Positions 1 through 61,299 are shown, counted from the stretch's first letter. The stretch: DNA of 64,000 bases from Candidatus Gottesmanbacteria bacterium GW2011_GWA2_43_14 (GCA_000999095.1 LCFP01000002.1:5736-69735); one strand, 5' to 3'. Program-made: numbers and translations. Notes: a model not told the origin generated them from the letters alone.

Positions 1-7
1 AAATAAA

Positions 8-6144: not shown

Positions 6145-6618
6145 TTATCTTTTTATTTCTTGCTCTACTTGTAAAACATACGTATCTCCACTGGAAGTTA
6201 TTATTCGTAAGAACCATTTACCATCTTTTGTAAGTATTCCGTCAGCGTTCTCTCCGTTTGTCATATTTAAAACATTAAACGTCGCTTTGATATTTTCAGG
6301 TCCTTTTTGATTATAGAATGTAAAATTTCTTGTTGATTCATCTTTTAATCTTTCTTCGTAAACAATAATTGCACCTTCGTATTCTAAACCTTTTAAATCC
6401 GAATCTTCAACTTTGTTTATTCTCAATGCTTGAGGTAAAGAAGTAAACCCATGAAAACGAAGGTTGGTTTCAAAACCCTGAATAAGTCTGTCTTGCCCGT
6501 AAGTTTCGCCAATGTTTTTAGTTTTTGTTCCATCAATCGGAGATAATCGGTTAAATTTATCAATGCTTTGATATAAATTTGATAAATTATTTTGAATAAT
6601 TGCTGGTCTTATATCCAT
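6145..6618 (-). CDS. Hypothetical protein
   Basis: 157-aa ORF with AT-rich codon usage like the host. No recognisable motif. Confidence 0.35.
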   Translation of the reverse strand: MDIRPAIIQNNLSNLYQSIDKFNRLSPIDGTKTKNIGETYGQDRLIQGFETNLRFHGFTSLPQALRINKVEDSDLKGLEYEGAIIVYEERLKDESTRNFTFYNQKGPENIKATFNVLNMTNGENADGILTKDGKWFLRIITSSGDTYVLQVEQEIKR

Positions 6619-6938
6619 AATTTTGGTCTTTTAAGAATAATCTAATACTTATACTATAATTTGTAAAGCGAAATAAACGAAATAAATTACAGATATAAAT
6701 TGATATAGTAGCGTCTATAAATTTGTACACCTTATTTAACGATATTCAAACCGAAACTTTGGACTATTGGAATAATATTTTCCTTAATTTAAAAGACTAT
6801 ATTTGTACTAGGCTCTGAAGTTAGGATCTCTTTAAAAATACTATTAGAACGAACCACATAATTACATTTCTCCTATATTCAAATATATTAATTGCTTATC
6901 CTATTTAAATAAAATAATATCGAATTAAATATTTATAA

Positions 6939-8147
6939 TTGAAAATGAAAAATGAAATAAATATATGGTCAATAAAGAATAAAAAAAATAAATTTCTTCA
7001 GATCAAATATTTCTTAATATTATTAGCGCTACTTTTGATCGTATTCGCTATCTATTTCCAAATTTTAAATAAAATTAATTTATTAACGATTCAATTTCAA
7101 ACTACTAATCCATCTCCTACTATTAATCCGGAAGAAGTAAAAAAGGTTAAAAAAGAAAAGTACGTTCAAAATATTCTTTCGTCTATGACACTTGAAGAAA
7201 AGATCGGACAGATGATTATGTGGGGTATAAATGAACCTGTATTATCTTCCGAATCAGCATCTATGATAGAAGATACTCATGCAGGAGGAGTGATAATAAT
7301 GATTAATAAAGATCAAGTATTCACACCACAACAGATCAACAAGCTAACTCATCAAATCAAGTATTTAAATAACAAAATACCGCTTTTTATTGCCATTGAT
7401 GGAGAAATCGGAATAATAAAATCTAAAATATCTGGTTTTGAAAATTATAATCAGTTTCCAGAATATATGGATGACAGTAAATTCTGCTCCGAAGTATCTG
7501 ATATATCAAACTTTCTTTATGATAATGGAATTAATGTTAACTTTGGAATTATTGCTGATATTGGTTGGAATCAAGGTTTTATCAAATACCGAACATATGG
7601 AAATACTCCTGAAAGTGTAAGAAACAGAATTACTACAGCAATTGATTGTTCAAATAATAATTTACTTATAACTGTAAAACACTTTCCCGGGCATGGAAGA
7701 ACTGTAGTAGATTCTCATTATACTTCTCCCATTATTGAGACCGACTATGACAAATGGCTAAAAACAGATAAAGTTCCTTTTCAAGAAGCTATAGATAAAA
7801 AAGTGGATCTCGTTATGATGGGACATTTGATTTATAACAAAATCGCTAGTGAACCAGCCAGTTTATCACTGGTTCATAATAATAATGTCCGTCAAATGGG
7901 TTTTGATGGAATTATTATTACTGATGATTTGGGTATGTTAGAAAGTAGTGGAATAGAACCTAAAGAAGTTCTAAATAAGGCAATTAATGCTAAAAATGAT
8001 ATTTTGTTATATGTAAACCATAGGCTTGATGCGAATGAAATAATCAATCAAATCGTTAATGAAGTTGAAATTCATAATATTTCTGTAAATAGAATAAATG
8101 AAAGTGTTCAACAAATATTAAAAAGTAAATATTCAATAATTGATTAA
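6939..8147 (+). CDS. Glycoside hydrolase family 3 N-terminal domain protein (NagZ-like beta-N-acetylhexosaminidase), membrane-anchored
   Basis: EEKIGQMIMWGI and KHFPGHGRTVVDSHYTSP (the GH3 KHFPGHG motif). N-terminal TM segment. Confidence 0.7.
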   Translation: MKMKNEINIWSIKNKKNKFLQIKYFLILLALLLIVFAIYFQILNKINLLTIQFQTTNPSPTINPEEVKKVKKEKYVQNILSSMTLEEKIGQMIMWGINEPVLSSESASMIEDTHAGGVIIMINKDQVFTPQQINKLTHQIKYLNNKIPLFIAIDGEIGIIKSKISGFENYNQFPEYMDDSKFCSEVSDISNFLYDNGINVNFGIIADIGWNQGFIKYRTYGNTPESVRNRITTAIDCSNNNLLITVKHFPGHGRTVVDSHYTSPIIETDYDKWLKTDKVPFQEAIDKKVDLVMMGHLIYNKIASEPASLSLVHNNNVRQMGFDGIIITDDLGMLESSGIEPKEVLNKAINAKNDILLYVNHRLDANEIINQIVNEVEIHNISVNRINESVQQILKSKYSIID

Positions 8148-8267
8148 TTACCTAAATTGTGCTCTTTCAGTCGTTGTTTAAGATTTTCAGAGTATCCGAT
8201 GTAAATCCAAGAAGGGAAATTTATACTTTGTAAAACATAAACGTAGTGAAACTTAAACATAAAAATA

Positions 8268-8306
8268 GGGACGCACCAGCCGGTGCATCCCTCGCTTTAT
8301 TGTTTT
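8268..8306. terminator. Bidirectional intrinsic terminator-like hairpin
   Basis: GGGACGCACC-AGCC-GGTGCATCCC, a 10-bp stem with one mismatch, followed by CGCTTTATTGTTTT on the + strand. An A/T-rich run also precedes it on the other strand. Lies downstream of the GH3 gene. Confidence 0.45.
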
Positions 8307-8703
8307 AAATACAGTTTCATTATTATACGGATTGGATTCCTGACTTCGGACATTTAGTGCCCCAAAGACCGTAATTTCTCCAGTTGTCCACAAAGTTTTG
8401 GATCTTCAATTGTGGTTTCCACAAATCCAGTTTCTCCAGTCTTCAGAATGGTTATCTGTGGGCTAAAATCTTTTGAGCCACTTTTAAGAGGTGTCCGAAG
8501 TCAGGTGACTTTCTCTTTTTTAATAGACCAACACCGGATAGTTTGTTGATATGAAAGGTAACGGTGGGCTGCCGCAGGGATAAGTGTTCCACAATTTCGG
8601 TAACCGTTGCTTACCTTCCGATTTTTTTAAGGTAATCCAAAATGGTCAGCCTGGACGGAATACTGGCTGTTTCCAAACACTGTCGGCATCTCTGGTGAAT
8701 CAT
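8297..8703 (-). pseudogene. Disrupted paralog of the ArsR-family regulator gene at 11086..11385 (frameshifted, with the MITE inserted)
   Basis: The minus strand gives MIHQRCRQCLETASIPSRLTILDYLKKIG (compare CHKCLKNLMEPSRLKIFDYVQKS). After a frameshift it gives RQPTVTFHINKLSGVGLLKKRK (compare RQPTVTFHVNKLAEAGLLQKKK), then the MITE, then NPIRIIMKLYLKQ* (compare EVIIQTKHL). Confidence 0.5.
8339..8506. mobile_element. MITE-like non-autonomous element, 168 bp, with perfect 14-bp terminal inverted repeats (CCTGACTTCGGACA ... TGTCCGAAGTCAGG)
   Basis: Perfect 14-bp TIRs read directly from the sequence. The element interrupts the reading frame of an ArsR-family paralog, and its 168-bp length equals exactly 56 codons. 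No internal ORF. Confidence 0.55.
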
Positions 8704-8748
8704 ATTTATTGGTATCTATCGGAAGAATATTATTTAAACACCAAAAAG

Positions 8749-9672
8749 TCAATTATTATAGCTTATCAGGAGAGCTCCGTCATCGTAAATCATACCCACT
8801 CCCGGAGCGTAGCGTTTGGTTGAAGGCGGAGTTTCTTCAACATAAAGTACATTATTAAAAATTCCTGCGGGAGTGTTATAATTTTGTTCAAATCTGATAT
8901 GGGCAGCCCTGTCCATAGCTATACCTGGAGCTACTTCCTGCTGGTAAGTTTGTCCCACAGTTGGATTAGCCGGCATGACAATTCCCGGTTTATTTGATCC
9001 TTCTCCGGCCCTCCAGGCACCGGAATGACCGACAATTTGCCCGCCGGAATAGATATCAACGTCCTCTCCGTAATAGCAGACCGTACCGTCCGGGGCGGCA
9101 ACAAAGAAATTACGGGAAATTTCAATAAGATTCCCGTTATTGGTTTCATATTCTTCCACTACCCTGGTTGTGATTCCCGCAACGACTTCAGTCTGATTTA
9201 ATACTGAAAATTTTACCGTAAAAGTTCCGTCGGATATGGTATTAACTTTACCTACCGGAAGGGGAAAATAAGGATTGGTTATATTTAATGAGAAAGGTCC
9301 GTTGGTTGGGTCGCAGATCGAAATATCCAGTTCTCCGGTTGCAGGTTGAGTAGGCTGGGTACCGGTTACCGTAGGAAAAGGGCTTGAATTTTTATTGTAA
9401 TTATTCAGCCAGATAACGTAATCAAGACCGTCAACCTTTCCGTTATTGTTGAAATCTCCGGATAGCCTGCCGTCGCTGACTGTTTTGTTATAATTTTTAA
9501 GCCAGATAACATAATCAATTCCATCCACTTTGCAGTCACGGTTTGCGTCCCCCGCAAGCTCCGTAAGGCAGGTTTGGGCCTGAACTTCAGGAACCGGTTT
9601 ATTCAGAAAATAGAAATCTGTTAATAAAATTATTAATGAAAGAAGAATGTAGGCAAATATTTTCCTAAACAT
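8749..9672 (-). CDS. Secreted protein with a dockerin type I repeat pair
   Basis: Signal peptide MFRKIFAYILLSLIILL...AQ. Two dockerin repeats: DANRDCKVDGIDYVIWLKNY and DFNNNGKVDGLDYVIWLNNY. Confidence 0.6.
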   Translation of the reverse strand: MFRKIFAYILLSLIILLTDFYFLNKPVPEVQAQTCLTELAGDANRDCKVDGIDYVIWLKNYNKTVSDGRLSGDFNNNGKVDGLDYVIWLNNYNKNSSPFPTVTGTQPTQPATGELDISICDPTNGPFSLNITNPYFPLPVGKVNTISDGTFTVKFSVLNQTEVVAGITTRVVEEYETNNGNLIEISRNFFVAAPDGTVCYYGEDVDIYSGGQIVGHSGAWRAGEGSNKPGIVMPANPTVGQTYQQEVAPGIAMDRAAHIRFEQNYNTPAGIFNNVLYVEETPPSTKRYAPGVGMIYDDGALLISYNN

Positions 9673-11085: not shown

Positions 11086-11385
11086 ATGCTTGTGGGTGAC
11101 GATAGATTAAAATCTATATGTATGAATAAATATTGCCATAAATGTCTGAAAAATCTGATGGAACCATCCCGTTTGAAGATTTTCGATTATGTGCAGAAAT
11201 CTACAGACAGAGTAACCCTGGGGACTCTGGTCAACTTTACCAGACTGAGGCAACCGACAGTTACTTTCCATGTCAATAAGTTGGCGGAAGCGGGACTGCT
11301 GCAAAAAAAGAAATTCGGCCGCGAAGTCATTATCCAGACAAAACACCTCCCCGAACGCTGCACCACCTGTCCCATTTTTCACTAA
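11086..11385 (+). CDS. ArsR/SmtB-family HTH transcriptional regulator
   Basis: About 90 aa; an N-terminal CxxC (CHKC) precedes the wHTH LRQPTVTFHVNKLAEAGLL. A degraded paralog lies at 8297..8703. Confidence 0.55.
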   Translation: MLVGDDRLKSICMNKYCHKCLKNLMEPSRLKIFDYVQKSTDRVTLGTLVNFTRLRQPTVTFHVNKLAEAGLLQKKKFGREVIIQTKHLPERCTTCPIFH

Positions 11386-41680: not shown

Positions 41681-41756
41681 TGGTGACCCGGGAGCGAATC
41701 GAACGCTCAACCTTCCCGTTAGAAGCGGGATGCTCTGTCCGTTGAGCTACCGGGCC
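41681..41756 (-). tRNA. tRNA-Arg (anticodon UCU), CCA encoded
   Basis: Reverse complement GGCCCGGTAGCTCAACGGACAGAGCATCCCGCTTCTAACGGGAAGGTTGAGCGTTCGATTCGCTCCCGGGTCACCA. Confidence 0.85.
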
Positions 41757-41763
41757 ATTCCGG

Positions 41764-41835
41764 AGCGGCGGAGGGGATTTGAACCCCTGACCTTCTCCTT
41801 GGAAGGGAGACATTCTACCGCTGAACTACCGCCGC
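41764..41835 (-). tRNA. tRNA-Gly (anticodon UCC)
   Basis: Reverse complement GCGGCGGTAGTTCAGCGGTAGAATGTCTCCCTTCCAAGGAGAAGGTCAGGGGTTCAAATCCCCTCCGCCGCT. Confidence 0.85.
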
Positions 41836-41841
41836 TTAAGG

Positions 41842-41914
41842 TGCCGAGGGTCGGAGTCGAACCGACATCATGTGTTTTTCAGACACACGCCGTGACCACC
41901 TTGGCTACCTCGGC
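41842..41914 (-). tRNA. tRNA-Phe (anticodon GAA)
   Basis: Reverse complement GCCGAGGTAGCCAAGGTGGTCACGGCGTGTGTCTGAAAAACACATGATGTCGGTTCGACTCCGACCCTCGGCA. The D-arm is atypical, hence lower confidence. Confidence 0.75.
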
Positions 41915-41949
41915 TTATAAAATATATCTTATCACAAAACCCCGAAGTG

Positions 41950-42023
41950 TGGACCCGAGAGGTCTCGAACCTCTGACCTTTGCGATGTAAGCGCAACGCT
42001 CTGACCAACTGAGCTACGGGTCC
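41950..42023 (-). tRNA. tRNA-Val (anticodon UAC)
   Basis: Reverse complement GGACCCGTAGCTCAGTTGGTCAGAGCGTTGCGCTTACATCGCAAAGGTCAGAGGTTCGAGACCTCTCGGGTCCA. Confidence 0.85.
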
Positions 42024-42099
42024 AACGAGTGTTTTTAGCTCCAACTATTTTATAGGAATACTTTAACTGGCGCAACCTGATTTGGTACAATAAAAGCAT

Positions 42100-42170
42100 T
42101 GCGGGGTCGTCTAATGGTAGGACAGCAGCCTTTGGAGCTGTTTATCATGGTTCGAATCCATGCCCCGCAG
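42100..42170 (+). tRNA. tRNA-Gln (anticodon UUG)
   Basis: TGCGGGGTCGTCTAATGGTAGGACAGCAGCCTTTGGAGCTGTTTATCATGGTTCGAATCCATGCCCCGCAG, with a U1-A72 pair typical of tRNA-Gln. Confidence 0.8.
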
Positions 42171-42176
42171 CAAAAT

Positions 42177-42794
42177 ATGAATAAAAAAATGAAGATATTA
42201 TTTGTTTTGCTTATCTTATTGGTGTTATTAGGGTATAGATATTATAAAAATGCAATATTAGATGATTACAATTCAAATGAAATGTTAAACCTAACCATTT
42301 CTCAACCCCCATATCCATCAGAACAGCCGCATTTAAATAATTCCAAAACAAAGTACATTTATAATGATCAATATATTACGTTTGAATATCCCCAGGTCTG
42401 GAAAGCAGATTATAACCGGCAAATTGGAAATCCGTATGTTGTTAATGTTGACTTTACTGGTGAATGTAATCCATATCGGGTAGTTTCTTTTTCTTACAAG
42501 AATACTAATCCGAATGACTCAGAAAGTTTCACAGTAGGACAAAAAAACCCACATGGTCCCGGAAACCAAACATCAAAAACGATAAAAATTAACGGTATTA
42601 CCGTTGGTGAAAATATACAACCAGTAGGTGATGGATCAGGTGGATATGAGCCTAAAGTAGTTATTGATCTATTATCTAAATCTAAGAAATTCCATTTCTA
42701 TTTTATTGCTGTAATAGGATATCGGAATTCGTTTGAAGAGACGTATAAAATAGATTTATTACCTATTTTAAATAGTATAGAATTACTGGATTAA
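42177..42794 (+). CDS. Hypothetical secreted/membrane-anchored protein
   Basis: Start trimmed to the ATG after the tRNA-Gln (MNKKMKILFVLLILLVLLG...), which is an N-terminal signal/TM segment. Confidence 0.45.
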   Translation: MNKKMKILFVLLILLVLLGYRYYKNAILDDYNSNEMLNLTISQPPYPSEQPHLNNSKTKYIYNDQYITFEYPQVWKADYNRQIGNPYVVNVDFTGECNPYRVVSFSYKNTNPNDSESFTVGQKNPHGPGNQTSKTIKINGITVGENIQPVGDGSGGYEPKVVIDLLSKSKKFHFYFIAVIGYRNSFEETYKIDLLPILNSIELLD

Positions 42795-42886
42795 AAGAAG
42801 CATTATTTGAATTTGTCTTGAAATAGGTTCTAACTTCGTCCACAGTTCGCAGCAGATTTTGATAAGTAGGTCGGGCACGAAAATTG

Positions 42887-42933
42887 CTCGCCGCGGGTGG
42901 GTTCGCGGCGAGGGCGTCAAAGCCGCCTTTTTT
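42887..42933 (+). terminator. GC-rich hairpin plus T6 intrinsic terminator
   Basis: CTCGCCGCG-GGTGGGTT-CGCGGCGAG (perfect 9-bp stem), then GGCGTCAAAGCCGCC and TTTTTT. Confidence 0.5.
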
Positions 42934-42990
42934 GAAACGGACTGCGAGTTTACGATCCTTTAAAAAGAAGTTCGAGCCGACAGTTGCGGA

Positions 42991-43016
42991 GGCGCGGCGG
43001 GTGGAGGCGCCGCGCC
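42991..43016. repeat. Second GC-rich hairpin with a loop similar to the first
   Basis: GGCGCGGCG-GGTGGAG-GCGCCGCGCC, a perfect 9-bp stem. On the minus strand it sits downstream of gene 43104..44246. Confidence 0.4.
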
Positions 43017-43038
43017 GGAGCGTAATATTTATATAAAT

Positions 43039-43068
43039 GAGGTTCGGCATTTTTTGTAAAGCGACAGC
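43039..43068 (+). repeat. Conserved intergenic motif, copy 1: GAGGTTCGGCATTTTTTGTAAAGCGACAGC
   Basis: 29/30 identical to copy 2 at 44313. It is preceded by TATAAAT. Confidence 0.7.
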
Positions 43069-43103
43069 AAGTTGGAATTAGAAAGATTTTTAAAACTTTC
43101 TTG

Positions 43104-44246
43104 TTACTTTTTCCTTTTTAAAAGGATCACAACAATTACCGCAAATATCAGTACACCGATGAATATAAGTATTGTCGGGGTAATACGAAACGGTGTAGTT
43201 TTTGTTCCGTTTTCCTTATATCCCTGAGTGTCACTCTCATCTGTATTTAAATTTCCGTTATCGTTAAGTTCGGCTTGTGCCAGTTCTGTTTCAATAAGCT
43301 CAGTTTCTTCTTTAAGAACATCAGTATAATTAAATTCAGTTACCTCATATCCATCTCCATTAACAGTATATCTGTCACCCGGACTTAGCGGTAATTTTCC
43401 GTTATCCGGCAGGGTCACCTCTACGCTTCCTTCCATGACATCGAATTTAGTTTCATTTGTTTCTTCTAAGTGAGATACGCCAAACGAAGTTCCCAGGACA
43501 CCGGCAACTGTCAGATAGGTTTCTACTTGAAAAGTTTTTCCCTGCTTCTTTAAATTAAAAAACGTTTCACCAAATACTATCTGCACTCCCTGAAATAACA
43601 TGGTTACCTTGGTGTTTGATTTTATTTTCAGTATTGATCCGTCGGGATATTTAATAATAAATCTTGAGTTTGGACCTGTCTTGATTACATCCCCTTCCCG
43701 AATATTAATAGGTCCGTCAGATGGAATATCTTCATAAGTCTCACCGTTATTGCGTGAAAACTGAGCAGTTCCTTTCACAAGCCCTCCGTCTACACCTTGC
43801 TTAGGAAGAAAATCAGTTTCTATATTCCACGATCCGTCAAAAGCCTCCGGATTATCAACTGTAAAATCAACTCTTAATGTATCGAAGACAGTAGTATAGG
43901 TACCTCTAATTAAATTAAACGAAAGGTCACCTATGATAAATTCCCCGTTTGGACCTCCTGAAAATGTACCTGTAAATTCATCACCACCGTATCCGTTACA
44001 ATTTGAAGTGCACTCTGCCCTACCAGAGACCTGTGAGTATTGTCCTGATGGATCCAAAGCTCCTACATTCCAAAACTCCAGATGATATACCAAAGTAAAA
44101 TTCCACACTTGGACAGTATCTGACGTTGCCGTGACCTTTTGGGGAGGTGGATAAGCATGGACATACCGGATCGGCCAGATGAATACAAAAAATAGTATTA
44201 AGCCGATGATTGTAATAAGGTTTCTCCGGATTTTCATAATCTTCAT
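43104..44246 (-). CDS. Cell-surface protein with N-terminal signal/TM, FecR-like beta domain and C-terminal TM anchor
   Basis: N-terminal MKIMKIRRNLITIIGLILFFVFIW and C-terminal ILIFIGVLIFAVIVVILLKRKK. The segment GDVIKTGPNSRFIIKYPDGSILKIKSNTKV is FecR-domain-like. Confidence 0.4.
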   Translation of the reverse strand: MKIMKIRRNLITIIGLILFFVFIWPIRYVHAYPPPQKVTATSDTVQVWNFTLVYHLEFWNVGALDPSGQYSQVSGRAECTSNCNGYGGDEFTGTFSGGPNGEFIIGDLSFNLIRGTYTTVFDTLRVDFTVDNPEAFDGSWNIETDFLPKQGVDGGLVKGTAQFSRNNGETYEDIPSDGPINIREGDVIKTGPNSRFIIKYPDGSILKIKSNTKVTMLFQGVQIVFGETFFNLKKQGKTFQVETYLTVAGVLGTSFGVSHLEETNETKFDVMEGSVEVTLPDNGKLPLSPGDRYTVNGDGYEVTEFNYTDVLKEETELIETELAQAELNDNGNLNTDESDTQGYKENGTKTTPFRITPTILIFIGVLIFAVIVVILLKRKK

Positions 44247-44312
44247 TATTTATTAAATGGAAGTTTACCAGAAACTATCTAATAATTACAATTTCATCAA
44301 CATTTATAATAG

Positions 44313-44342
44313 CGAGGTTCGGCATTTTTTGTAAAGCAACAG
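44313..44342 (+). repeat. Conserved intergenic motif, copy 2: GAGGTTCGGCATTTTTTGTAAAGCAACAGC
   Basis: Preceded by a perfect TATAAT at 44303-44308. Lies 180 bp upstream of the Tat-lipoprotein gene. Confidence 0.7.
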
Positions 44343-44522
44343 CCAATAAGAAGAAAACGGACATGAGTTCCTGTTTAAGTTCCATCACGAATGCGTTAAA
44401 CGTGGAATTGTCCGCTTCTTTTCAAGGCCAAGGACTTCAGGAGAAGTCTACGGGATATCATGAACCAGGACACATATTTGCCCAATTCTTGATTTGATGC
44501 TATTATTTGCCATTACAAAATT

Positions 44523-45500
44523 ATGACTACCCGGCGTGAATTTTTAAAATTAGCAGCGGCATCAATTTTGGCTGGATGCATTCCTCCAGCTCCACCCAGT
44601 ACAACGCCTTTTGAGATTATACCTACCCCATATCCAGAATTTGTTGACCCGAAACTAATAACTTACGGCCAGCAGTTGGCGGATTGGACTGTTGCCGATA
44701 CGCTGATGGTAAAAAAATTTTCGGAAATTGACCAGGCAGCCCTGCTATTGTCCGGTGAAACCGATCCGGGACAGCTCATGTCATATGTCAATATACCGCT
44801 TGGTTACCTGATAAACAATGAGAGAGATCCGTACCTACGCTTTAATGCCGGAATCCAGACGGATCCTGATGCCAAGTTCAACATGACTACCAAAGCTGGT
44901 GACCCAATTATTGTACCAATTTCCTCAAATGTCACATTTGAATTTGTACTACCCCAAAATTTGGAGAATTCGGGGTTTGCCAAAATTACTATGTTGCGAA
45001 TGGGACTGGAGGTATTGGATTTCCCATACTATTGTGAAATTTATCGCCAACAGTTGGAAGAAACGGGTATACAGATTGATGATCAGAGTGTTTCAGCTCT
45101 GGGAATACCGCCCGACCTGGTCAATTTTTCCATATCCAGGGATATGGACGCTATTCTCCTCGCAACTGGCAAATCTCCTCTTTTACCTTACCTGACAAAA
45201 ATGGGCAGCGATATCCGCGCGTCCGTGACTTATGCCAATTGGCTAACCCAATATGATGCAGATGAAACCGACCTACCTCAAGACCAAACCGAACTTTTAT
45301 CTACTCTTCGCATTATCAAAACATTAATGATAGATAAAGAGCTGATCACAAAAGAAGAATCAGGACTTTATGTATGGACCAATGGTGCCCCTCCCCAAAT
45401 CAATGCTTCTGATTTTGTACAATTGATTGATGAACTGCAACATAGATATCAAGAAAGTAACTTACAGGGTTTTTTCATAAGCGAAAAAACACTTCAATAG
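44523..45500 (+). CDS. Tat-secreted lipoprotein, function unknown
   Basis: Twin-arginine motif TRREFLKLAAASILAGC with a lipobox LAGC. Confidence 0.5.
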   Translation: MTTRREFLKLAAASILAGCIPPAPPSTTPFEIIPTPYPEFVDPKLITYGQQLADWTVADTLMVKKFSEIDQAALLLSGETDPGQLMSYVNIPLGYLINNERDPYLRFNAGIQTDPDAKFNMTTKAGDPIIVPISSNVTFEFVLPQNLENSGFAKITMLRMGLEVLDFPYYCEIYRQQLEETGIQIDDQSVSALGIPPDLVNFSISRDMDAILLATGKSPLLPYLTKMGSDIRASVTYANWLTQYDADETDLPQDQTELLSTLRIIKTLMIDKELITKEESGLYVWTNGAPPQINASDFVQLIDELQHRYQESNLQGFFISEKTLQ

Positions 45501-45528
45501 AGGTTCGAAATTTTTTGTAAACTGACAG
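45500..45528 (+). repeat. Conserved intergenic motif, copy 3 (diverged): GAGGTTCGAAATTTTTTGTAAACTGACAG
   Basis: Overlaps the stop of the upstream gene and ends 15 nt before the ATG at 45544. About 24/29 identical to copies 1 and 2. Confidence 0.55.
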
Positions 45529-45543
45529 TCGGAAAACAGCTTC

Positions 45544-46272
45544 ATGTTCAGTTCTCTAAAGAATTATTTATACAGGCATCTATTCTCAATTGCCCCCGAA
45601 AGTTTACGGCAGATTTATTTCCGGACAAAAGTACTTGTTCCCAAAAAAGTATTAACACAAAAATTTTCAGAAGCTATTGAATTTCTGAAGCATAACGGCC
45701 CCATCAATGATTATTTGGAATTCGGTGTTTTTCGGGGAGATTCCTTAATTTGTATGTATCAGGCGTTAAAACAGCATAAAATTAATCATTCTAGATTATT
45801 CGGATTTGATTCTTTTGAAGGTTTGCCCGAAATTAAAGACAAATATGACAAAAAGTTACCTTGGCAAAAGGGGGAATTTGTCTCCGCCTTGGCAACAACC
45901 AGAGGCAACTTAAATAGAGCACATGTGAATTGGAATCGTGTTTTCCTGATAAAAGGCTATTTCAATAACACTTTGAATAAAAATCTCATAGATAAACACA
46001 ATCTAAAAAGTGCGAGCATCATCATGATTGACTGTGATTTATATTCATCAGCAAGAGAAGCTTTGGATTTTTGCGCTTCAATGATAAATGATCGTACCAT
46101 TATTTTTTTTGATGACTGGGCAGCCGGAGGTGAAAAGCTGGCTTTTAACAAGATGCTCAAAGCCAACCCCGATCTTATAGCTCAGGAATTCGGTTCATAT
46201 GTCCATTCAGAACAAAAAAATCCATATACCGCAAAAATATTCCTGGTGACCAGAAAAAAAAGAAAAAATTAA
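45544..46272 (+). CDS. TylF/MycF-like (macrocin-O-methyltransferase family) SAM-dependent O-methyltransferase
   Basis: LEFGVFRGDS (glycine-rich SAM motif), FGFDSFEGLP, and IDCDLYSS with a FFDDW metal-binding-like motif. Confidence 0.55.
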   Translation: MFSSLKNYLYRHLFSIAPESLRQIYFRTKVLVPKKVLTQKFSEAIEFLKHNGPINDYLEFGVFRGDSLICMYQALKQHKINHSRLFGFDSFEGLPEIKDKYDKKLPWQKGEFVSALATTRGNLNRAHVNWNRVFLIKGYFNNTLNKNLIDKHNLKSASIIMIDCDLYSSAREALDFCASMINDRTIIFFDDWAAGGEKLAFNKMLKANPDLIAQEFGSYVHSEQKNPYTAKIFLVTRKKRKN

Positions 46273-46277
46273 AATTT

Positions 46278-47387
46278 CTATTTTTCAATTTGGTCTTTAA
46301 GGTATTTTTGCACAGCTGACCAGCGGTTTGTTCCTTCTTTAGGCACTAAAATTGCTCCGCCGGCAGAAGAAGAATCTGCCCTAAGGACGTTTTCAGTTGA
46401 GAGATTTATCCTGACAACCCCGAATTCCTTTGCTTTTGTTATGGCCGGTATCAAATATTTAACCGCTTCGCCGTCCAAATCAGTTGATATATTCTTTGAT
46501 AGGTCGCTAAAAAAACGCGGCAGGTTGTCCAGGGATTCGAGACTCAGGATTCTTTTCTTTAAAGCCAACATAACTTCCTGCTGCCGTATTCCCCTGGAGA
46601 TATCTCCGGCTGAAGAACCGTGGCGTGAGCGGACATAAGCCAAAGCGTCCCCTCCCTGCATGCTGACTTTGCCCTTTTCAAAATTGAGATGCTTATAACG
46701 GCAGGGAAACTGCCTCTCCAGTTCAAATCCCGAATATTTTGCGGATACGTCCCCCACTTCTTCTGCCGTCATGCCGCAGGTATCAAGTTCCCGTCCGCGG
46801 ACAGGATACCAGGAGTCGTCCAGAGTTTCAGATACATCCACCTCAATGCCTTTAAGATTGATGCCCACCGTCCTGTCAAATCCGACAAAATCAATACCTG
46901 TATAATAATCAATTTTCAGTCCGGTGATGGTGCCGATAAATTCTTTCATTGCCTGCCGGCCGTTACGACCGTAGGCAGCAAAAGCTCCGTTGATTTTAGT
47001 ACTCTTGCCGTTTCCCAGGGTAACCCATAAATCACGGGGGATGGAAATGAGGGCGATTTTCGCTGTTTCAAAGTCAATATAAACGACCTGCAAGACATCA
47101 GTCAGGTGCCCGCCTTCATGTCCGGCTCCGCCATAGCCCAAAAGCAGCATACCCAGTGATTTATCACCGATGTCCGTACCGTCCTGTTGCTTCTCTGTTG
47201 TTTCAGACAGTACCTGCGGAATATTTTCAACTGTCGTATTTTTCCCGGCCCTGATTTTTTTGAAACTGAAAAGACCTATTACCGCCACAGTCAAGACAAA
47301 AAAACCGGCTAAAAAAAATTTCCGTGGTATTTCGAGCTTTGGCTTGATTTTTTCGGAAAGGCCTAATAAAGGCTTATAGCCAGTCAT
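46278..47387 (-). CDS. LytR-CpsA-Psr (LCP) family cell-envelope glycopolymer transferase
   Basis: N-terminal TM segment; MLLLGYGGAGHEGGHLTDVLQVVYIDFETAKIALISIPRDLWV is the LCP core. Confidence 0.8.
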   Translation of the reverse strand: MTGYKPLLGLSEKIKPKLEIPRKFFLAGFFVLTVAVIGLFSFKKIRAGKNTTVENIPQVLSETTEKQQDGTDIGDKSLGMLLLGYGGAGHEGGHLTDVLQVVYIDFETAKIALISIPRDLWVTLGNGKSTKINGAFAAYGRNGRQAMKEFIGTITGLKIDYYTGIDFVGFDRTVGINLKGIEVDVSETLDDSWYPVRGRELDTCGMTAEEVGDVSAKYSGFELERQFPCRYKHLNFEKGKVSMQGGDALAYVRSRHGSSAGDISRGIRQQEVMLALKKRILSLESLDNLPRFFSDLSKNISTDLDGEAVKYLIPAITKAKEFGVVRINLSTENVLRADSSSAGGAILVPKEGTNRWSAVQKYLKDQIEK

Positions 47388-47437: not shown

Positions 47438-47731
47438 TTAACGCGATTTGTTATTCCGCCTTTTGACTGCCGCCTTGTGGATCAGCCTGACAATAGGCAG
47501 GTTCGGTTTGATTTTCAAGATAATCAGACAGACTTTTATGCATTTTTCAAAATTTCCGGCCTTATAACTGGCCAACATCTCCGTTTTCATGTCCGCCAGT
47601 GTTTCATTCAATTTCAAATCCTTAAGGCCGGCGACGGCAATTTCCTTTTCATTCTTAAAAAGGAAATTTTCCTCATTTTTGACAAGTGTTAGTTTTATCG
47701 GCTTACCGGAATTTTTTTTCATAGTCGGCAA
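47438..47731 (-). CDS. Hypothetical small protein
   Basis: 97-aa ORF co-oriented with flanking genes; overlaps the 3' end of the upstream gene by about 29 nt. No motif. Confidence 0.3.
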   Translation of the reverse strand: MPTMKKNSGKPIKLTLVKNEENFLFKNEKEIAVAGLKDLKLNETLADMKTEMLASYKAGNFEKCIKVCLIILKIKPNLPIVRLIHKAAVKRRNNKSR

Positions 47732-48485
47732 TGACTGATTTTTTATAACTTAAATCAGCCAAAAGCTGAATTTTGATTTCGCGAAGCACATCGCGGTTGT
47801 CCTTTAAGCCCATTATTAACCTCAGGCGTATTTTATTCCATTCCGATTTTATCAAATCCGAATATTGTTTATTAAGTTCGTTCACCTGGTCATTAATTCT
47901 TTCCAGTTTTGTGATTAACTGCCTGGTCGAAAGCTCCCTATGATCAGGCGCGGTTTCATCAGCTATCCTCTCCAGCCTGCCCAGATCCTGTTGGTTATAT
48001 GCCTGTATGATTTTTTTCATGATTTTTTCCCTGGCCAGTTTAGCTTTTTTGTCCGTTACCAAATCAGGATGATATTGACTTACCAGCTTCCGGTAGAGAA
48101 CTTTTAATTCTTTTCCCGAATCCTGATTCATGGACAAAGAAGAAATGCCCATGCGGCTTTCCGAATCGCTGAAATTGTCAGTTTCAGCATCCTCATTTTG
48201 CTTTTTCATTAATTCCATAATCCGCTCGGCTTCCGTAAAGGTCGCTCCGCTTTTTACCAGTTCTTCGATCTGCTGATACCACTTTATCTTCCGGTCCAAT
48301 AAATCAAGCTCGTAATATAAACTGCCGACCCGTGATAAATACTCATGCTGGGCAGCCATGATCACACTCCGTAATTTTTCGGTTTTTAAAAGCAGGTTTT
48401 CGACTGCTTTTTGTTTGCGCTTTATCGCACCAATAAGCCTTTTTTTATCATCCGTTTTCGCAATAACAGCTAATGGTTTTTCCAT
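47703..48485 (-). CDS. J-domain-containing protein (DnaJ-like co-chaperone fragment architecture)
   Basis: LKVLYRKLVSQYHPDLVTDKKAKLAREKIMKKIIQAYNQQD carries the HPD motif. The N-terminal half is a coiled coil. Confidence 0.45.
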   Translation of the reverse strand: MEKPLAVIAKTDDKKRLIGAIKRKQKAVENLLLKTEKLRSVIMAAQHEYLSRVGSLYYELDLLDRKIKWYQQIEELVKSGATFTEAERIMELMKKQNEDAETDNFSDSESRMGISSLSMNQDSGKELKVLYRKLVSQYHPDLVTDKKAKLAREKIMKKIIQAYNQQDLGRLERIADETAPDHRELSTRQLITKLERINDQVNELNKQYSDLIKSEWNKIRLRLIMGLKDNRDVLREIKIQLLADLSYKKSVIADYEKKFR

Positions 48486-52325: not shown

Positions 52326-52898
52326 ATGTCAAACGTTGAAACAAAAAAGGAGTTGTCGAGAGAACAACGTGAAGAACTACTGAAGAGCTTGAAAGCCCGT
52401 TTTGAGAAAAACATGAACCGCCATAAAGGTCTTGAATGGGCTAAAGTACAAGCAAAGCTGGAAGCGAGTACTGAAAAACTGTGGTCACTAAGTGGAATGG
52501 AAAGAACTGGCGGTGAACCGGATGTTATAGGTCTCGATAAAAAGACGGGCGAATACATTTTTTATGATTGTTCAGCGGAAACACCCCGCGGCCGCAGAAA
52601 TGTTTGTTACGACCGTGCAGGGCAGGAGGCAAGGAAAGCATTTAAACCAGAAGATAACGCTATTGATATGGCAGCTACCATGAGCATTGAACTTTTAACG
52701 GAAGAACAATATCGAGGGTTGCAGAAACTTGGAAATTTCGATACTAAAACGTCGAGCTGGTTGAAAACACCAATCAGTATTAGAAACTTAGGCGGCGCGT
52801 TGTTTGCTGATCGCCGCTATGGCAATGTCTTCGTGTATCACAACAGTGCGCCCTCATACTATGCTGCTCGCGCGTTCCGTGGCTCGCTAAGGGTCTAA
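52326..52898 (+). CDS. DUF4256 family protein
   Basis: MSNVETKKELSREQREELLKSLKARFEKNMNRH...GGEPDVIG...FYDCSAE...RRYGNVFVYHNSA matches my recollection of the highly conserved DUF4256 family. Elevated GC. Confidence 0.55.
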   Translation: MSNVETKKELSREQREELLKSLKARFEKNMNRHKGLEWAKVQAKLEASTEKLWSLSGMERTGGEPDVIGLDKKTGEYIFYDCSAETPRGRRNVCYDRAGQEARKAFKPEDNAIDMAATMSIELLTEEQYRGLQKLGNFDTKTSSWLKTPISIRNLGGALFADRRYGNVFVYHNSAPSYYAARAFRGSLRV

Positions 52899-56938: not shown

Positions 56939-57676
56939 ATGGGACTAATCGAAACAGAGTATCTCGGAGAACATATTCCGAAAACAGGATTGACTGCCGT
57001 AAGGGAATTCTTTTACAGAACAAAAAATCCTTTTGTTGTTATTTCTGATAATGGTATGCTTTTTCCTTCTGATGCCGACCCAAGCCCGGTAATTAGATAT
57101 CCTGCGCTAGATTATTTAAAAACACATTTGGCAACTTCGGCAACCGGTAGGAAATTATTAAAAATTGCCTTTGGACAAACTCGTGGACAATATCAAGATT
57201 TTGTTCCTGATAATCCTATAAAAATTATATTCGGCCACTCCGTATTCAAACAGTTAGAGAGCGACCATCCGGAAGCCCAATTATTGACAGTTGTCCGCGA
57301 CCCTCTTCCCAGAACAGTTTCCCAATATTTCTTTGTATTAAATGATAAAGCAATTACCGGTTACCTTCCCGACTGGGCAATCGGCAACGAAGATGAACTT
57401 CCCCTGTCACAGTTCCTCACAGATCCGGAAACTGCAAATTTCCAAACAAAGTATCTTAACGGTTATATTTCCAAACTGAAATTTATCGGGGTTACGGATA
57501 AATTAGAAAATTTTGTCAGATACTTATTTCCTGATAAAAAAATTGTGTTGGGGCGAAGGAATATTACCAAAAGACCAAAACTTCATATTCCGGATCAAGT
57601 TATTTACGAATTTAAGAAACTGAATAAGCAGGATTATGAATTATATGAATACGCTAAAAATACGTTCAACGCTTAA
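56939..57676 (+). CDS. PAPS-dependent sulfotransferase-like protein
   Basis: IPKTGLT resembles a 5'-PSB motif and VVRDPLPRTVSQYFF resembles the 3'-PB motif RDPxxRxxSxY/F. Confidence 0.5.
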   Translation: MGLIETEYLGEHIPKTGLTAVREFFYRTKNPFVVISDNGMLFPSDADPSPVIRYPALDYLKTHLATSATGRKLLKIAFGQTRGQYQDFVPDNPIKIIFGHSVFKQLESDHPEAQLLTVVRDPLPRTVSQYFFVLNDKAITGYLPDWAIGNEDELPLSQFLTDPETANFQTKYLNGYISKLKFIGVTDKLENFVRYLFPDKKIVLGRRNITKRPKLHIPDQVIYEFKKLNKQDYELYEYAKNTFNA

Positions 57677-57831
57677 AGTCCTTACGGACATCCAACCTTC
57701 CCGACATTTTGGTGATCCCGCTAGTACCTTAAACAGACTGAAGGAATTCTTTAAATTATTCCTTTCTGATGGACTAAACTCCGAGTTTGCTTATGCATTT
57801 GGACTAAAAGATGTATAGCAAAGTACAATAT

Positions 57832-58866
57832 CTATTTCTCTCTTAAGACATAAAAAGTAGCTTTGCCTTTTGCTTTCCTACTAATTAAACCTAACTCTAT
57901 TAATTTTTTAAAATCTAATGCTCTAGTTGCCTTCGCTCGGTCAACTAATTTTGCATAATCCCGGTCAGAGATAAATCCCCTTTCTTTAATAAACTCTAGC
58001 ATCTTTAGGTGATAGGGTTTAAGTTGGGTTTCTGGACTCATTCCAACCTGTGGAAGTAGTTTTTGGACCCTTAGTAGTTCATCGATAATTCCTTCTGTAA
58101 AATATTCTAGCCAAGGAGTGAAATCAATTTTATCTGTTAATTCATAGTAATTGCCAAATTCTCCTACAGTTTGAAAATATTTAGTAACATTTTTATTGTA
58201 ATAATGCTCAAAACTGAAAAGGTTAAAAGTATTTAATCCCATTTCAGCCAAAAGCACTTTTGTAGCAAGGCGGGTTGTTCTTCCGTTTCCATCCATAAAA
58301 GGGTGAATAATTACCATTTGCTTGTGGAATATACCAGCTAAAATAAGAGGATCAATTTCGTTTCGGTTGCTATTTACAAACCCAATTAAATCCTCTATTA
58401 GTTTCTTTACATCTTTTGCATCAGGAGGTAAATATATAACTTTTCTAGTTCTCGGATCGTTTACAACTACTGGTTTCTCTCGCAATTTTCCAGATTCAAA
58501 TTTAGGTAATAATCCTTTAGTAATTTCTTTTTGAATTCTTAATATCAGATTAAGAGATAATTTTACTTGTGCCTTTTCAAGTTTTTCATTTAAATTCTGG
58601 AGTGCTTGATTGTAATTTAAAATCTCCTTCTCGCTATCCCTTATATGAACAGACTTTGATATGAGGATTTTTTTAACCTCGGTTAAAGGAAAAGGATTCC
58701 CTTCGATACTCGTTGAGGCGTATGTTGAAACAGCCCTTGCAGTCTTTTCAAGCTCTATTAAAACAACATTAGGAAACCGCCTATTATTTAGTTCATTTAC
58801 TAAAGCATTAACTCGTTTAATATTTGATAAAAGACGATCTGTAATAGTATATCGAGGTGTTAACAT
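57832..58866 (-). CDS. Fic family protein (AMPylase-type) with C-terminal winged-helix domain
   Basis: Canonical Fic motif HPFMDGNGRTTR. Confidence 0.85.
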   Translation of the reverse strand: MLTPRYTITDRLLSNIKRVNALVNELNNRRFPNVVLIELEKTARAVSTYASTSIEGNPFPLTEVKKILISKSVHIRDSEKEILNYNQALQNLNEKLEKAQVKLSLNLILRIQKEITKGLLPKFESGKLREKPVVVNDPRTRKVIYLPPDAKDVKKLIEDLIGFVNSNRNEIDPLILAGIFHKQMVIIHPFMDGNGRTTRLATKVLLAEMGLNTFNLFSFEHYYNKNVTKYFQTVGEFGNYYELTDKIDFTPWLEYFTEGIIDELLRVQKLLPQVGMSPETQLKPYHLKMLEFIKERGFISDRDYAKLVDRAKATRALDFKKLIELGLISRKAKGKATFYVLREK

Positions 58867-59192
58867 ATAGTCGTATTATAGACGAATAGTAGACGATTCG
58901 CAATGGGTAAAATTTCGATCCTTGTGACCAGCCTCGACTAGTCGTCGAGTCTAGACGGGCCTAGATGAATCATCAAAATAGTTTACTCTGAGCACTTTCG
59001 ATAAACTCAGTGTAAATTTGTCGAAGGGCTCTCTTAAAGTAAGCAAAGCTTGCCTTTTGCTACCGCAAAACGTAAGAGCCTGTCCTGAGCGATCCTGAGC
59101 TTGTCGAAGGATACTTTCACCACAAGGATCATTCGGTAAAAGTATTATATCTGTTTCTCGGCTGATAACACAATTGCCACTTAAGAAATTAT

Positions 59193-59727
59193 CTAGGGAT
59201 GTGAGTTCGGCAGAGGTCTTAAATCTTTAAATTCCAAATTCGGTCTAATCTCTCTAGTTGGTTGTTCACTATTTCTGTTAATCCAAATAGCATTAAAACC
59301 CTGTTCTTTGGCTGGGATAATATCATGAATATAGCTGGCGGCTACATGAAGTACTTCCTCTTTTTTAGTACTAAATCTTTTAAGCATTTCCTGCCAGTGT
59401 CCATGAGCTGGTTTATAAGAGCCAACTTCTTCAGCAGTTACCACCCCATCAAAGTCAATTCCCATTAGTTTAATTGATCTTTTAATAATTTCATTATCAA
59501 TGTTGGAGAGAATTATAAGTTTATAGCCCTTTTGTTTTAACTCAGCTAAAAAGTCATGCGTTTCTGGAAAAGGTTGCCAGTTATAAATGGAATCTGCAAA
59601 CTCAAGAGCATTTTCGTCTGAAATGTAAAAACCTATTTGTTTTAAAAGTTTTTTGGCTGAAAGTTGTAAAACTTCATAATATTTTCTATCTCTTCTATAC
59701 GCTTATATTCTGATGAGTGCATTTTTT
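59193..59727 (-). pseudogene. 5'-truncated HAD-superfamily hydrolase (haloacid dehalogenase-like), lacking motif I and a start codon
   Basis: The open frame AYRRDRKYYEVLQLSAKKLLKQIGFYISDENALEFADSIYNWQPFPETHDFLAELKQKGYKLIILSNIDNEIIKRSIKLMGIDFDGVVTAEEVGSYKPAHGHWQ...HVAASYIHDIIPAKEQGFNAIWINR carries HAD motifs II-IV. It has no DxDGT motif, and no ATG occurs between the upstream stop at ~59728 and M at 59465. Confidence 0.5.
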
Positions 59728-59799
59728 TGCGAGTTAATATTTCAATACAGTCGTGTTACTATTAATGATTATCTGATCCCATATATTTAATCAGTAATT

Positions 59800-61299
59800 A
59801 TGTCAAAAAAATCTTATTGTTATTTGTTTGCAACGGTTATGCTAGGCGTATTCCTGCGGCTTTATCGGTTCCCACAAACGTTAATTTTAGGTACCGATCA
59901 GGGAGGTGCCTATATATTAGCTGATAGAATAATCAACCAGGGTCATATTTTATTGGTAGGTCCTCTAACTAGTCTTTTGCAGGTTAATCTTTTACCGCCT
60001 GCTTTTTATTATATCGTGACTTTTGTTTATCTTCTCTTTAGAAGTGAAATCAGTGTATCTCTTGCCTTTTCATTTGCCGGAATTGTCTCTGTTATTCTTA
60101 TTTATTTTCTAGGTAAAAATATATTCAATGCTAAAAGCGGCTTAATTTCGGCATTAACATATGCCGTTTCTCAATCCATGGTCTGGTACGGCCGTAATAT
60201 GTGGGAGCCCCATCTGGTCCCTTTTTTTGTCATTTTGTCATTATTATTTCTATTTAAAGCCAAAAATCAAACTAAATTAATATTTCTTCACCTATCGTTA
60301 TTCTTTTTTTTCCTCAGTTTTCTTTACGTTTCATCATTACTTTTATTACCTGTTTATTATTTCTGCTTTGCTTATTTTTATAAATCAGTTAAATCGTCAG
60401 TACGCTGGCCGTATATTAAAACTGTATTATTATTTCTTATATACGGCGGTCTTGTTTATCTTCCGGTTATTATTTTCGAGCATACCCGTTCATATCCGTC
60501 CTTAAATTATCTCTTCCAGGTATTGCAAGGTAAAACTGAATATGTTTCTTTTCAAAGTCCAAATTATTTGACTTCGGTAACTACCCATATTTTTCTCTTT
60601 ATAAATTCCATCTTCATCAATGTTAATATTTTCCAGTCACTAATTATATTTATTATATTTATAGGACTTGTTTCTTATATAACTGTAAAAACAAAAAATA
60701 ACCGCTTTAATCTGTTTGTATTATTAATGTTTTTCATCATAGCTTTTTTACTGTCCGGATTATACAGCCAAAAACCTTCAGACTATAGACTGGCCAGTCT
60801 TTATCCGGTATTTTTTTTATTGATTGGTGCCGTTACAAAAGCCGGAAATCGAACTATTTTATTTTTGATTATTTTTATAATAATTGCATTAAATATAAAA
60901 TCAACTCTCGATAGTATAAGAAACCTTAATCTGCAAAATTATCTGCATGCCTACCGTGTTGCAACAGAAATTCTTATCCGGTCTGAGAATCAAAAATTCA
61001 CCATCTATACCGTTAAACCCTTCGATTTTAGCAATTTCCATTCTACCCCATATTGGTGGGCATTGGAGAAACTTACGGGGAAAAGATTAATTACTTTAAA
61101 TGATAGGGGTAACTGGATTAACCAGGATTTAGATTTAAATAGCAGTCTGATTTACTTAATCTGCAGTGATACGGAAAATAAATCTTCATTTCAGGATAAA
61201 TGTTTAGACTATTTTGCTTCAAGCTATCGGTTATCTGACCCGGTAAAATATTTTTCCATTGATAATGCCACCGTCTATGAGTTTCAGGGAATCTATTGA
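59800..61299 (+). CDS. GT-C family membrane glycosyltransferase (PMT/ArnT-like, GT39-type)
   Basis: MSKKSYCYLFATVMLGVFLRLYRFPQTLILGTDQG... and about 12 TM helices; similar class to the gene at 2791..4134. Confidence 0.5.
   Translation: MSKKSYCYLFATVMLGVFLRLYRFPQTLILGTDQGGAYILADRIINQGHILLVGPLTSLLQVNLLPPAFYYIVTFVYLLFRSEISVSLAFSFAGIVSVILIYFLGKNIFNAKSGLISALTYAVSQSMVWYGRNMWEPHLVPFFVILSLLFLFKAKNQTKLIFLHLSLFFFFLSFLYVSSLLLLPVYYFCFAYFYKSVKSSVRWPYIKTVLLFLIYGGLVYLPVIIFEHTRSYPSLNYLFQVLQGKTEYVSFQSPNYLTSVTTHIFLFINSIFINVNIFQSLIIFIIFIGLVSYITVKTKNNRFNLFVLLMFFIIAFLLSGLYSQKPSDYRLASLYPVFFLLIGAVTKAGNRTILFLIIFIIIALNIKSTLDSIRNLNLQNYLHAYRVATEILIRSENQKFTIYTVKPFDFSNFHSTPYWWALEKLTGKRLITLNDRGNWINQDLDLNSSLIYLICSDTENKSSFQDKCLDYFASSYRLSDPVKYFSIDNATVYEFQGIY

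Follow-up and report, generated by a model that had tools for sequence, protein, structure and literature searches.

A probable accessory patch of envelope genes between a tRNA cluster and a native LCP gene in a Gottesmanbacteria genome

Do five adjacent genes downstream of a tRNA cluster in Candidatus Gottesmanbacteria bacterium GW2011_GWA2_43_14 form a single cell-surface island, or are they neighbours with separate histories? The question concerns positions 42177-47387 of a 64-kb stretch of DNA (hereafter, the window), where genes lettered A to E from left to right are predicted to encode an anchored or secreted protein (A), a FecR-domain protein (B), a lipoprotein exported by the twin-arginine translocation (Tat) pathway (C), a TylF-type O-methyltransferase (D) and an LCP glycopolymer transferase (E). 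A first-pass annotation, made from the sequence alone, had described all five as one island beside a tRNA hot spot, and had proposed that D and E cooperate in the methylation of a wall glycopolymer. The explanation that we favor, with a probability of roughly 0.6, is that genes A to D (approximately 42177-46272, 4.1 kb) make up a strain- or species-specific accessory patch, a loose collection of envelope genes lodged in a recombination-prone slot between the tRNA cluster and the LCP gene, which is native. The locus would thus be one more small variable patch of envelope genes at a tRNA cluster.

Evidence for a variable slot came from the comparison with relatives. Only two syntenic relatives, neither of them very close, were recovered (L016 and L025). 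A scan of GTDB genomes with HflX yielded only relatives with 50% identity or less, which had no neighbours in common with the window, and the better comparator, L016, came from the homologues of the LCP protein E. In L016, which is the closest relative, the LCP protein is 69% identical to E and its gene occupies the equivalent backbone position. The backbone present in both (66-88% amino acid identity) includes two MacB genes, which encode MacB/FtsX permeases in L016 and in the window alike, the LCP gene, HflX, DUF192, two further proteins, LepA and all ten tRNAs; the latter are the same five-tRNA cluster plus Leu, Leu, Gly, Pro and His after HflX. Gene order is MacB-MacB-tRNAs-(slot)-LCP-(slot)-HflX-tRNAs-DUF192...LepA, and the five-tRNA cluster is the left border of the first slot. 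None of genes A, B, C and D is found in the orthologous slot of L016, which contains, between tRNA-Gly(tcc) and the LCP gene, a gene for an FHA-domain protein of 641 amino acids.

The FHA segment of L016 lies between an intact tRNA-Gly(tcc) on one side and, next to the LCP gene, two direct repeats of the 3' end of this tRNA, 42 and 19 nt long (tRNA and repeats at 11107-11125, 11234-11275 and 14186-14258 of L016). A cargo framed by such fragments is what insertion at a tRNA classically leaves behind. Hence, the site behaves as a hot spot for insertion and rearrangement, with a cargo other than A to D in L016. Rearrangement is also apparent in the tRNAs themselves, as the Gly-Phe-Val-Gln block (41762-42171 in the window; 14186-14663 in L016) has opposite orientations in the two genomes when the MacB/Arg/LCP backbone is taken as reference. 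The second slot, between the LCP gene and HflX, varies as well: in the window it holds genes for a J-domain protein (260 amino acids, with an HPD motif) and a 94-residue protein (47438-48485), both upstream of E and on the same strand, while L016 has an ABC transporter with DUF4340 instead. The third genome, L025, whose MacB proteins are 82-84% identical to those of the window, departs from the window directly after the second MacB gene. Genes for an FkbM-type methyltransferase, a helix-turn-helix protein and a membrane protein follow, and tRNAs are absent there. The content found after MacB differs, therefore, in all three related genomes (the window, L016 and L025). A separate observation is that the FkbM-type enzyme of L025 (PF05050, 11404-12039) belongs to another methyltransferase family, at the equivalent variable spot.

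The sequence of methyltransferase D is identical on 13 contigs, JGI and Logan contigs among them. They include a 172-kb contig from Rifle groundwater that matches the window at 100% and one of 154 kb from a further assembly within that project. L002, which comes from a second assembly and represents almost the same strain, is 99.7% identical to the window over 14.5 kb, with 42 differences, and the match extends only rightwards from position 41763, the 3' end of tRNA-Gly. The junction between tRNA-Arg and tRNA-Gly (41756/41762) is thus a breakpoint in L002: to its left (1-6217), purF and a purine operon replace tRNA-Arg and MacB, and no Ns are found at the junction. Such a structure could be a genuine rearrangement or else a chimera in the contig.

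Taken together, these comparisons sustain part of the original view of a variable block at a tRNA hot spot. Genes A to D are absent from L016, and L025 diverges at the same place; however, the window has neither an integrase nor an attachment (att) repeat, and the block does not vary as a whole, as the LCP gene is kept in L016. The tRNA cluster can be regarded as a documented site of rearrangement and insertion in this Gottesmanbacteria lineage, which helps to explain strain-level variation of the cell surface in bacteria of the candidate phyla radiation (CPR), to which Gottesmanbacteria belong as members of the Microgenomates.

Base composition draws the boundary at the same point. The G+C content at third codon positions (GC3) is 0.23 for A, 0.32 for B, 0.39 for C and 0.34 for D, compared with a median of 0.46 for 50 open reading frames (ORFs) of the window; counted from the low end, genes A to D hold ranks 4, 7, 10 and 14 of the 50. 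Backbone genes have higher values: 0.47 for E, 0.49 for HflX, 0.52-0.54 for MacB and 0.50 for LepA. Because A to D are missing in L016 and have low GC3, while the LCP gene is backbone-like, we consider A to D the variable patch and the LCP gene native. Composition does not reveal a foreign origin in every respect, since the low GC3 of A to D goes with ordinary tetranucleotide usage (z 0.21); the actual tetranucleotide outliers of the window lie at 4-10 kb and 57-62 kb. Two low-GC3 patches other than A to D, at 2791-9672 and 56939-61299, are tetranucleotide outliers too, with genes for PMT_2 glycosyltransferases, a GH3 enzyme and dockerin-domain, SnoaL-like and Fic proteins.

Gene E was examined next to its known counterparts. 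Its product matches LytR_cpsA_psr (PF03816) with an E-value of 9.7e-29 (100.9 bits, cut-off 24.6) and TIGR00350 with 83.6 bits (cut-off 62.3), and hydropathy indicates a single N-terminal transmembrane segment (residues 24-42) that would leave the LCP domain outside the cytoplasm. The same combination of anchor and LCP domain is found in the LCP ligases TagT/U/V, MsrR and Cps2A, and the catalytic arginine motifs of E (SIPRD; YVRSRH, RxRH; SRGIRQQ, R..RQ) align with those of the solved enzymes Lin1025, TagV, MsrR and Cps2A. E is a bona fide LCP enzyme. It differs from the characterized ligases in that its scores fall short of the equivalog cut-offs for TagU, CpsA and LytR and its clade extends across Patescibacteria: over 100 full-length relatives (44-69% identity) were found, mostly labelled Patescibacteria. 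These many orthologues, the conserved position in L016 and the backbone-like GC3 indicate that E is a conserved native backbone gene and lies outside the variable patch, so that its former inclusion in the island has to be abandoned. A literature search on LCP proteins in the CPR found nothing directly relevant. One further assembly (L005) seemed to carry a truncated LCP allele of 196 amino acids; a run of N (2876-2986) marks a scaffold gap there, which rules out a true allele.

Methyltransferase D matches TylF (PF05711) with an E-value of 3.4e-18 and 66.3 bits against a cut-off of 23, which places it in the TylF family as originally annotated rather than in an unrelated one; Methyltransf_24 matches too. 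TylF, MycF and NovP methylate sugars of antibiotics. D aligns with NovP (2WK1) and MycF (4X7U) over the Rossmann core, and alignment with NovP pairs LEFGVFRGDS with VETGVWRGGA, MIDCDLYSS with RMDGDLYES and FFDD with IVDD, so that the S-adenosylmethionine (SAM) motif ExGVxRG and the metal-binding DxDLY and DD are kept. However, D is shorter (242 amino acids). The profile match covers positions 77-236 of the 264 in the hidden Markov model (HMM), with the first ~76, the N-terminal lid region, unmatched. Only ~40 residues precede the core of D, and relatives encoded in polysaccharide clusters are equally short. The hydropathy scan detected no hydrophobic segment in D.

The closest relative of D is a paralogue in the same genome (66% identity; L010, 8001-8777), whose gene adjoins a PNP_UDP_1 gene downstream of a pair formed by an extracytoplasmic function (ECF) sigma factor gene and a DUF5667 gene. 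The other relatives detected among 5.8 billion proteins have 53% identity or less and come from Cyanobacteria, Bacteroidota, Planctomycetota, Acidobacteriota and others. Two of them (45-49% identity) lie inside clusters of GT2/GT4 glycosyltransferase and NDP-sugar genes, which also encode a nucleotidyltransferase, an epimerase and a pyruvyl transferase. Unlike TylF, MycF and NovP, D has no natural-product cluster nearby, and its non-paralogous relatives are found in polysaccharide clusters, not in antibiotic ones. O-methylation of glycans is therefore the role to be expected of this short subfamily, of which D is an ordinary member. D is predicted to be a cytoplasmic, SAM- and metal-dependent O-methyltransferase which, by analogy with these relatives, most likely acts on a sugar of a cell-surface glycan. 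In the first-pass annotation, TylF enzymes were described as acting normally on sugars of secondary metabolites, and the combination at this locus as not commonly described. The family assignment holds; the genomic contexts of the relatives make a glycan role the norm. The literature search on TylF enzymes in wall polysaccharides gave nothing directly relevant.

Could A to E nevertheless be one cell-surface system, in which D methylates the wall glycopolymer that E attaches, with B and C as extracytoplasmic partners? Each of the five products has a link to the envelope or a plausible one to glycans, D has relatives in polysaccharide clusters, D and E are only 5 nt apart, and a repeated motif (see below) connects B, C and D. 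The arrangement of the two genes argues otherwise: D and E converge tail to tail, E has a promoter-like site of its own (47427-47398) that is among the three best sigma-70-like matches in the region, and a terminator-like hairpin for E (minus strand, 46240-46256) lies inside the last codons of D. L016 keeps E without D, and the composition of E is unlike that of A to D. No TylF gene was found in the three contexts of LCP relatives that were inspected (L016, L017/L018, L019/L020), and no LCP gene in the three contexts of methyltransferase relatives. In addition, genes for glycosyltransferases, flippases and sugar activation are absent from the block, and the motif stops short of E. We consider a joint system of this kind improbable, and the proposed methylation-plus-ligation module finds no support in the comparison. 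In the adjacency of D and E we see the point at which the variable slot ends on its right side, not a dedicated two-gene pathway. A word of caution is pertinent here: genes that adjoin at the border of a variable region should not be taken for a pathway.

Certain observations weigh against our preferred explanation, an accessory patch A to D beside a native LCP gene. Searches with Pfam, PADLOC and PHROGs detected no integrase, transposase or phage-like gene in the window, nor does the window contain an att repeat or a tRNA fragment; tRNA fragments occur only in L016, around other cargo. The tetranucleotide distance of the patch is no outlier in the window. As absence of A to D was seen in only two relatives, neither very close, loss could explain it, not gain. 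The repeated motif is confined to the patch and hints at a common regulation or origin of B, C and D, which a loose collection leaves unexplained. Finally, D may be functionally linked to the substrate of the LCP enzyme, a link for which genomics alone leaves room. D may also modify a glycan to be attached later by some LCP enzyme, although nothing specific in the genome speaks for this.

One way to interpret these data is that A to D are a decayed element, either a prophage or an integrative island, which entered at a tRNA 3' end by means of an integrase and has since lost integrase and att sites. The patch begins 5 nt past the 3' end of tRNA-Gln and has low GC3; the cargo found at the same cluster in L016 still lies between direct tRNA-Gly 3' fragments, the classic signature of integration. 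The inversion of the four-tRNA block between the window and L016 and the different left flank of L002 at the Arg/Gly junction point in the same direction. However, integrase, phage genes and tRNA fragments are all absent from the window, a search of IMG/VR found no relatives of B or D and no copies of the motif, and the L002 junction could be an assembly chimera. A decayed element is in our opinion unlikely. Comparison with tRNA-associated genomic islands in general leads to a mixed picture. Like them, the patch adjoins a tRNA 3' end, is absent from relatives and has GC3 below that of the backbone, and direct repeats of a tRNA fragment exist at the same cluster in L016; unlike them, the window has no integrase, att repeat or mobility genes, the patch is only 4.1 kb long, and its boundary on the LCP side is a plain convergent gene junction. 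Two other types of locus were considered and rejected: a defence island or prophage, as PADLOC was empty, PHROGs matched only the methyltransferase and IMG/VR was empty; and integron-like cassettes, as attC-type palindrome and integrase are both absent and gene orientations are mixed.

Another interpretation is that A to D are ancestral genes of the lineage, lost or replaced in the relatives sampled, and that their low GC3 results from weak expression or relaxed selection. Ordinary tetranucleotide usage, the 66% paralogue of D in the same genome, the existence of distant relatives of C in other Gottesmanbacteria and the further low-GC3 patches of surface genes (PMT_2, GH3, dockerin) scattered in the window are all compatible with ancestry. 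Against it, the content of the slot differs in three genomes out of three, D has no relative above ~53% identity in the 5.8 billion proteins if the paralogue is set aside, and C has none above 30%. We find an ancestral origin decidedly improbable.

If A to D are an accessory patch, as we propose, each of its genes would apparently be under its own expression signals. The product of A would be secreted or anchored at its N terminus; that of B, a FecR-domain ectoprotein, would be fixed in the membrane through a C-terminal helix and carry a hypervariable patch on its surface; and that of C would be a Tat-exported lipoprotein. On the cytoplasmic side, D would O-methylate a sugar of a cell-surface glycan precursor, as the contexts of its relatives suggest. 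E, outside the patch, would serve as a conserved housekeeping ligase for joining lipid-linked glycopolymers to the wall. The data show the gene content, the protein families, the variability of the slot and the composition; topology, the substrate class of D and the way in which the patch was acquired are inferred.

The layout of the locus is given in Table 1. ORF calling for A to E and tRNA detection, in which ARAGORN and Rfam agreed, recovered genes A to E and all five tRNAs at the coordinates of the first-pass annotation, where the motif in its three copies and the GC hairpins were found as well. The FecR, TylF and LCP domain calls are likewise confirmed, all above curated Pfam thresholds. 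The orientations of A to E alternate (+ - + + -), and a promoter scan detected sigma-70-like sites upstream of B, C and E.

Table 1. Features of the tRNA cluster and of genes A to E (window positions).
Feature	Position	Strand	Evidence
tRNA-Arg(tct)	41681-41756	-	ARAGORN, Rfam
tRNA-Gly(tcc)	41762-41835	-	ARAGORN, Rfam
tRNA-Phe	41840-41914	-	ARAGORN, Rfam
tRNA-Val	41949-42023	-	ARAGORN, Rfam
tRNA-Gln(ttg)	42100-42171	+	ARAGORN, Rfam
Gene A, predicted anchored or secreted protein, 205 aa	42177-42794	+	ORF, hydropathy
GC-rich hairpins, A/B spacer	42887-42912 and 42991-43016	.	Hairpin search, folding
Motif copy 1 (GAGGTTCGGCATTTTTTGTAAAGCGACAG), just 3' of B stop codon	43039-43067	+	Motif search
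Gene B, FecR-domain protein, 380 aa	43104-44246	-	ORF, Pfam PF04773
Hypervariable patch within B, aa 104-127	43867-43934	-	Comparison with L002
Motif copy 2, divergent B/C intergenic region	44314-44342	+	Motif search
Gene C, predicted Tat lipoprotein, 325 aa	44523-45500	+	ORF, signal read by eye
Motif copy 3, 4 mismatches	45500-45528	+	Motif search
Gene D, TylF/MycF/NovP-type O-methyltransferase, 242 aa	45544-46272	+	ORF, Pfam PF05711
Gene E, predicted LCP glycopolymer transferase	46278-47387	-	ORF, Pfam PF03816

The 29-nt motif (GAGGTTCG..ATTTTTTGTAAA...ACAG) occurs in three copies, all on the plus strand, starting at 43039, 44314 and 45500. No further copy exists in the 64 kb, where 0.01 would be expected by chance, and none was found in the relatives examined, including the locus of the D paralogue (L010). 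The copies are spaced by 1275 and 1186 nt, and each of them closes a one-gene unit. Copy 3 begins at the C stop codon, and 15 nt separate its end from the start codon (ATG) of D. Two readings of the motif are possible. Read on the minus strand, copy 2 contains TTTACA-N18-TATTAT, 60 nt upstream of B, which is the best sigma-70-like match for this gene; the motif might thus be a candidate promoter of B, and copy 1 might direct synthesis of a ~140-nt GC-hairpin RNA ending at a terminator-like stem. On the plus strand, copies 2 and 3 each precede an ATG: copy 2 that of a 44-codon ORF, at a distance of 20 nt, and copy 3 that of D, at 15 nt. A GAAAAC box is present in both.

One speculation is that the repeats delimit an array in which every repeat goes with a single gene (A, hairpins and motif; B and motif; C and motif; D). 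The motif would then serve as recombination site or shared operator of a CPR-specific system that swaps or co-regulates a glycan methyltransferase and surface proteins in a slot flanked by tRNAs, beside the wall ligase gene. If true, this would be a compact way of varying the cell surface in an episymbiotic lineage. We view it, however, as a long shot.

The remaining observations concern the individual products of the patch. Gene A has no family match in Pfam, and the hydropathy scan indicates a single N-terminal hydrophobic segment, either signal or anchor. A gap of 5 nt separates the 3' end of tRNA-Gln from the start codon of A (42171-42177), and a promoter-like site with a TG extension is found upstream of the tRNA (42063-42091). 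Such proximity suggests that A is probably co-transcribed with tRNA-Gln as a tRNA-mRNA. The spacer between the convergent genes A and B (310 nt) holds two 9-bp GC hairpins. On the plus strand, the tandem hairpins are followed by T6, an arrangement that would fit a terminator for A; on the minus strand, a terminator-like 9-bp stem is seen. Fold z-scores for the spacer were -2.78 on the minus strand and -1.15 on the plus strand. A known RNA family was discarded for this spacer, as the sole Rfam match, tfoR, is below threshold (27 bits, with 70 required).

Protein C begins with MTTRREFLKLAAASILAGC, where a twin-arginine motif (TRREFLK) and then a lipobox (LAGC) can be read directly. A word-indexed search of 5.8 billion proteins retrieved only C itself, and an exhaustive phmmer search retrieved 41 cluster representatives at the 50% level, with 20-30% identity and lengths of 310-380 amino acids; the named members are Gottesmanbacteria. 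Nearly all members of the family have RRxFL and most have a Cys shortly after the signal, and R4 of the twin-arginine pair of C is kept in at least 90% of 33 distant members. Annotation of C as a Tat lipoprotein thus has motif and family conservation in its favor, but the TAT_signal HMM stays below threshold (13.2 bits, cut-off 22.7); the hydropathy scan found no hydrophobic segment in C.

Conserved boxes of the family are LGxEL..W, DPR, KExSQ, NPxNxPTS, FANW and WT.G..P.I. AlphaFold with the family alignment produced a model of C with a predicted local distance difference test (pLDDT) score of 88.8 and a predicted template modeling score (pTM) of 0.83, compared with a pLDDT of 33 from the single sequence. 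A Foldseek search with this model found no match in PDB (best E 0.34, template modeling score, TM, 0.11) and none in BFVD. Profile searches of Pfam and of PDB sequences were empty, and no cofactor-binding signature was recognised. The pattern TRREFLK plus LAGC, kept in the family, is that of Tat-exported bacterial lipoproteins in general, from which C differs in having a mature domain that matches nothing in Pfam, PDB sequences or PDB folds. Genes for relatives of C occur singly in unrelated surroundings, with AbiEii, PhdYeFM, Dus/MurJ or an S1 protein as neighbour, and neither A, B, D nor a tRNA is near those examined. We conclude that C is a predicted Tat-exported lipoprotein of a small uncharacterised family, which it serves to define and for which a confident predicted structure lacks a solved counterpart.

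The FecR domain of B (PF04773, E-value 1.2e-12, 48.5 bits, cut-off 24) spans residues 186-276 and covers 97 of 97 profile positions. It is preceded by a signal-like N-terminus and an unknown domain (32-180), and followed by an acidic linker and a C-terminal transmembrane segment, then KRKK; hydropathy detects two hydrophobic segments, one N-terminal, starting at residue 6, and one at the extreme C terminus. The FecR region matches PDB 4M0N, a 'putative anti-sigma factor'. In FecR/PupR anti-sigma regulators, however, a cytoplasmic N-terminal anti-sigma domain precedes a single transmembrane segment. B has no such domain, and its FecR domain would lie wholly outside the membrane, with a C-terminal helix as anchor. 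No sigma factor gene exists within 10 kb on either side of B, so that an ECF partner is lacking. Architecture and missing sigma partner rule out a FecR-type anti-sigma factor. Hence, B is an extracytoplasmic FecR-domain protein, with a predicted topology in which the C-terminal anchor holds it, and not a FecR anti-sigma regulator. Weak similarity to the Leptospira surface lipoproteins LipL45 and Lsa33 is centred on the FecR domain, but B scores far below the cut-offs of their models.

Of the 42 differences that separate L002 from the window, 24 are concentrated in a 68-nt patch within B (43867-43934), a 3-nt indel among them, and contigs of four other assemblies stop around this patch, at 43862-44046. 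Substitutions affect all codon positions, synonymous sites included, and are of all base types. Because of this variety, and as no template-like repeat exists in the window, a diversity-generating retroelement is an unlikely mechanism; no reverse transcriptase was found among the unusual ORFs of the window that were tested. The data are better explained by import of a short allele tract or by diversifying selection on a surface loop. The patch is sharply localised and breaks metagenome assemblies, and its features are compatible with selection on an exposed surface loop.

A second cluster of differences from L002 (17 of the 42, at 52466-52618) lies in a DUF4256 gene (52326-52898). It involves mostly conservative amino acid changes and looks like a short imported allele tract.

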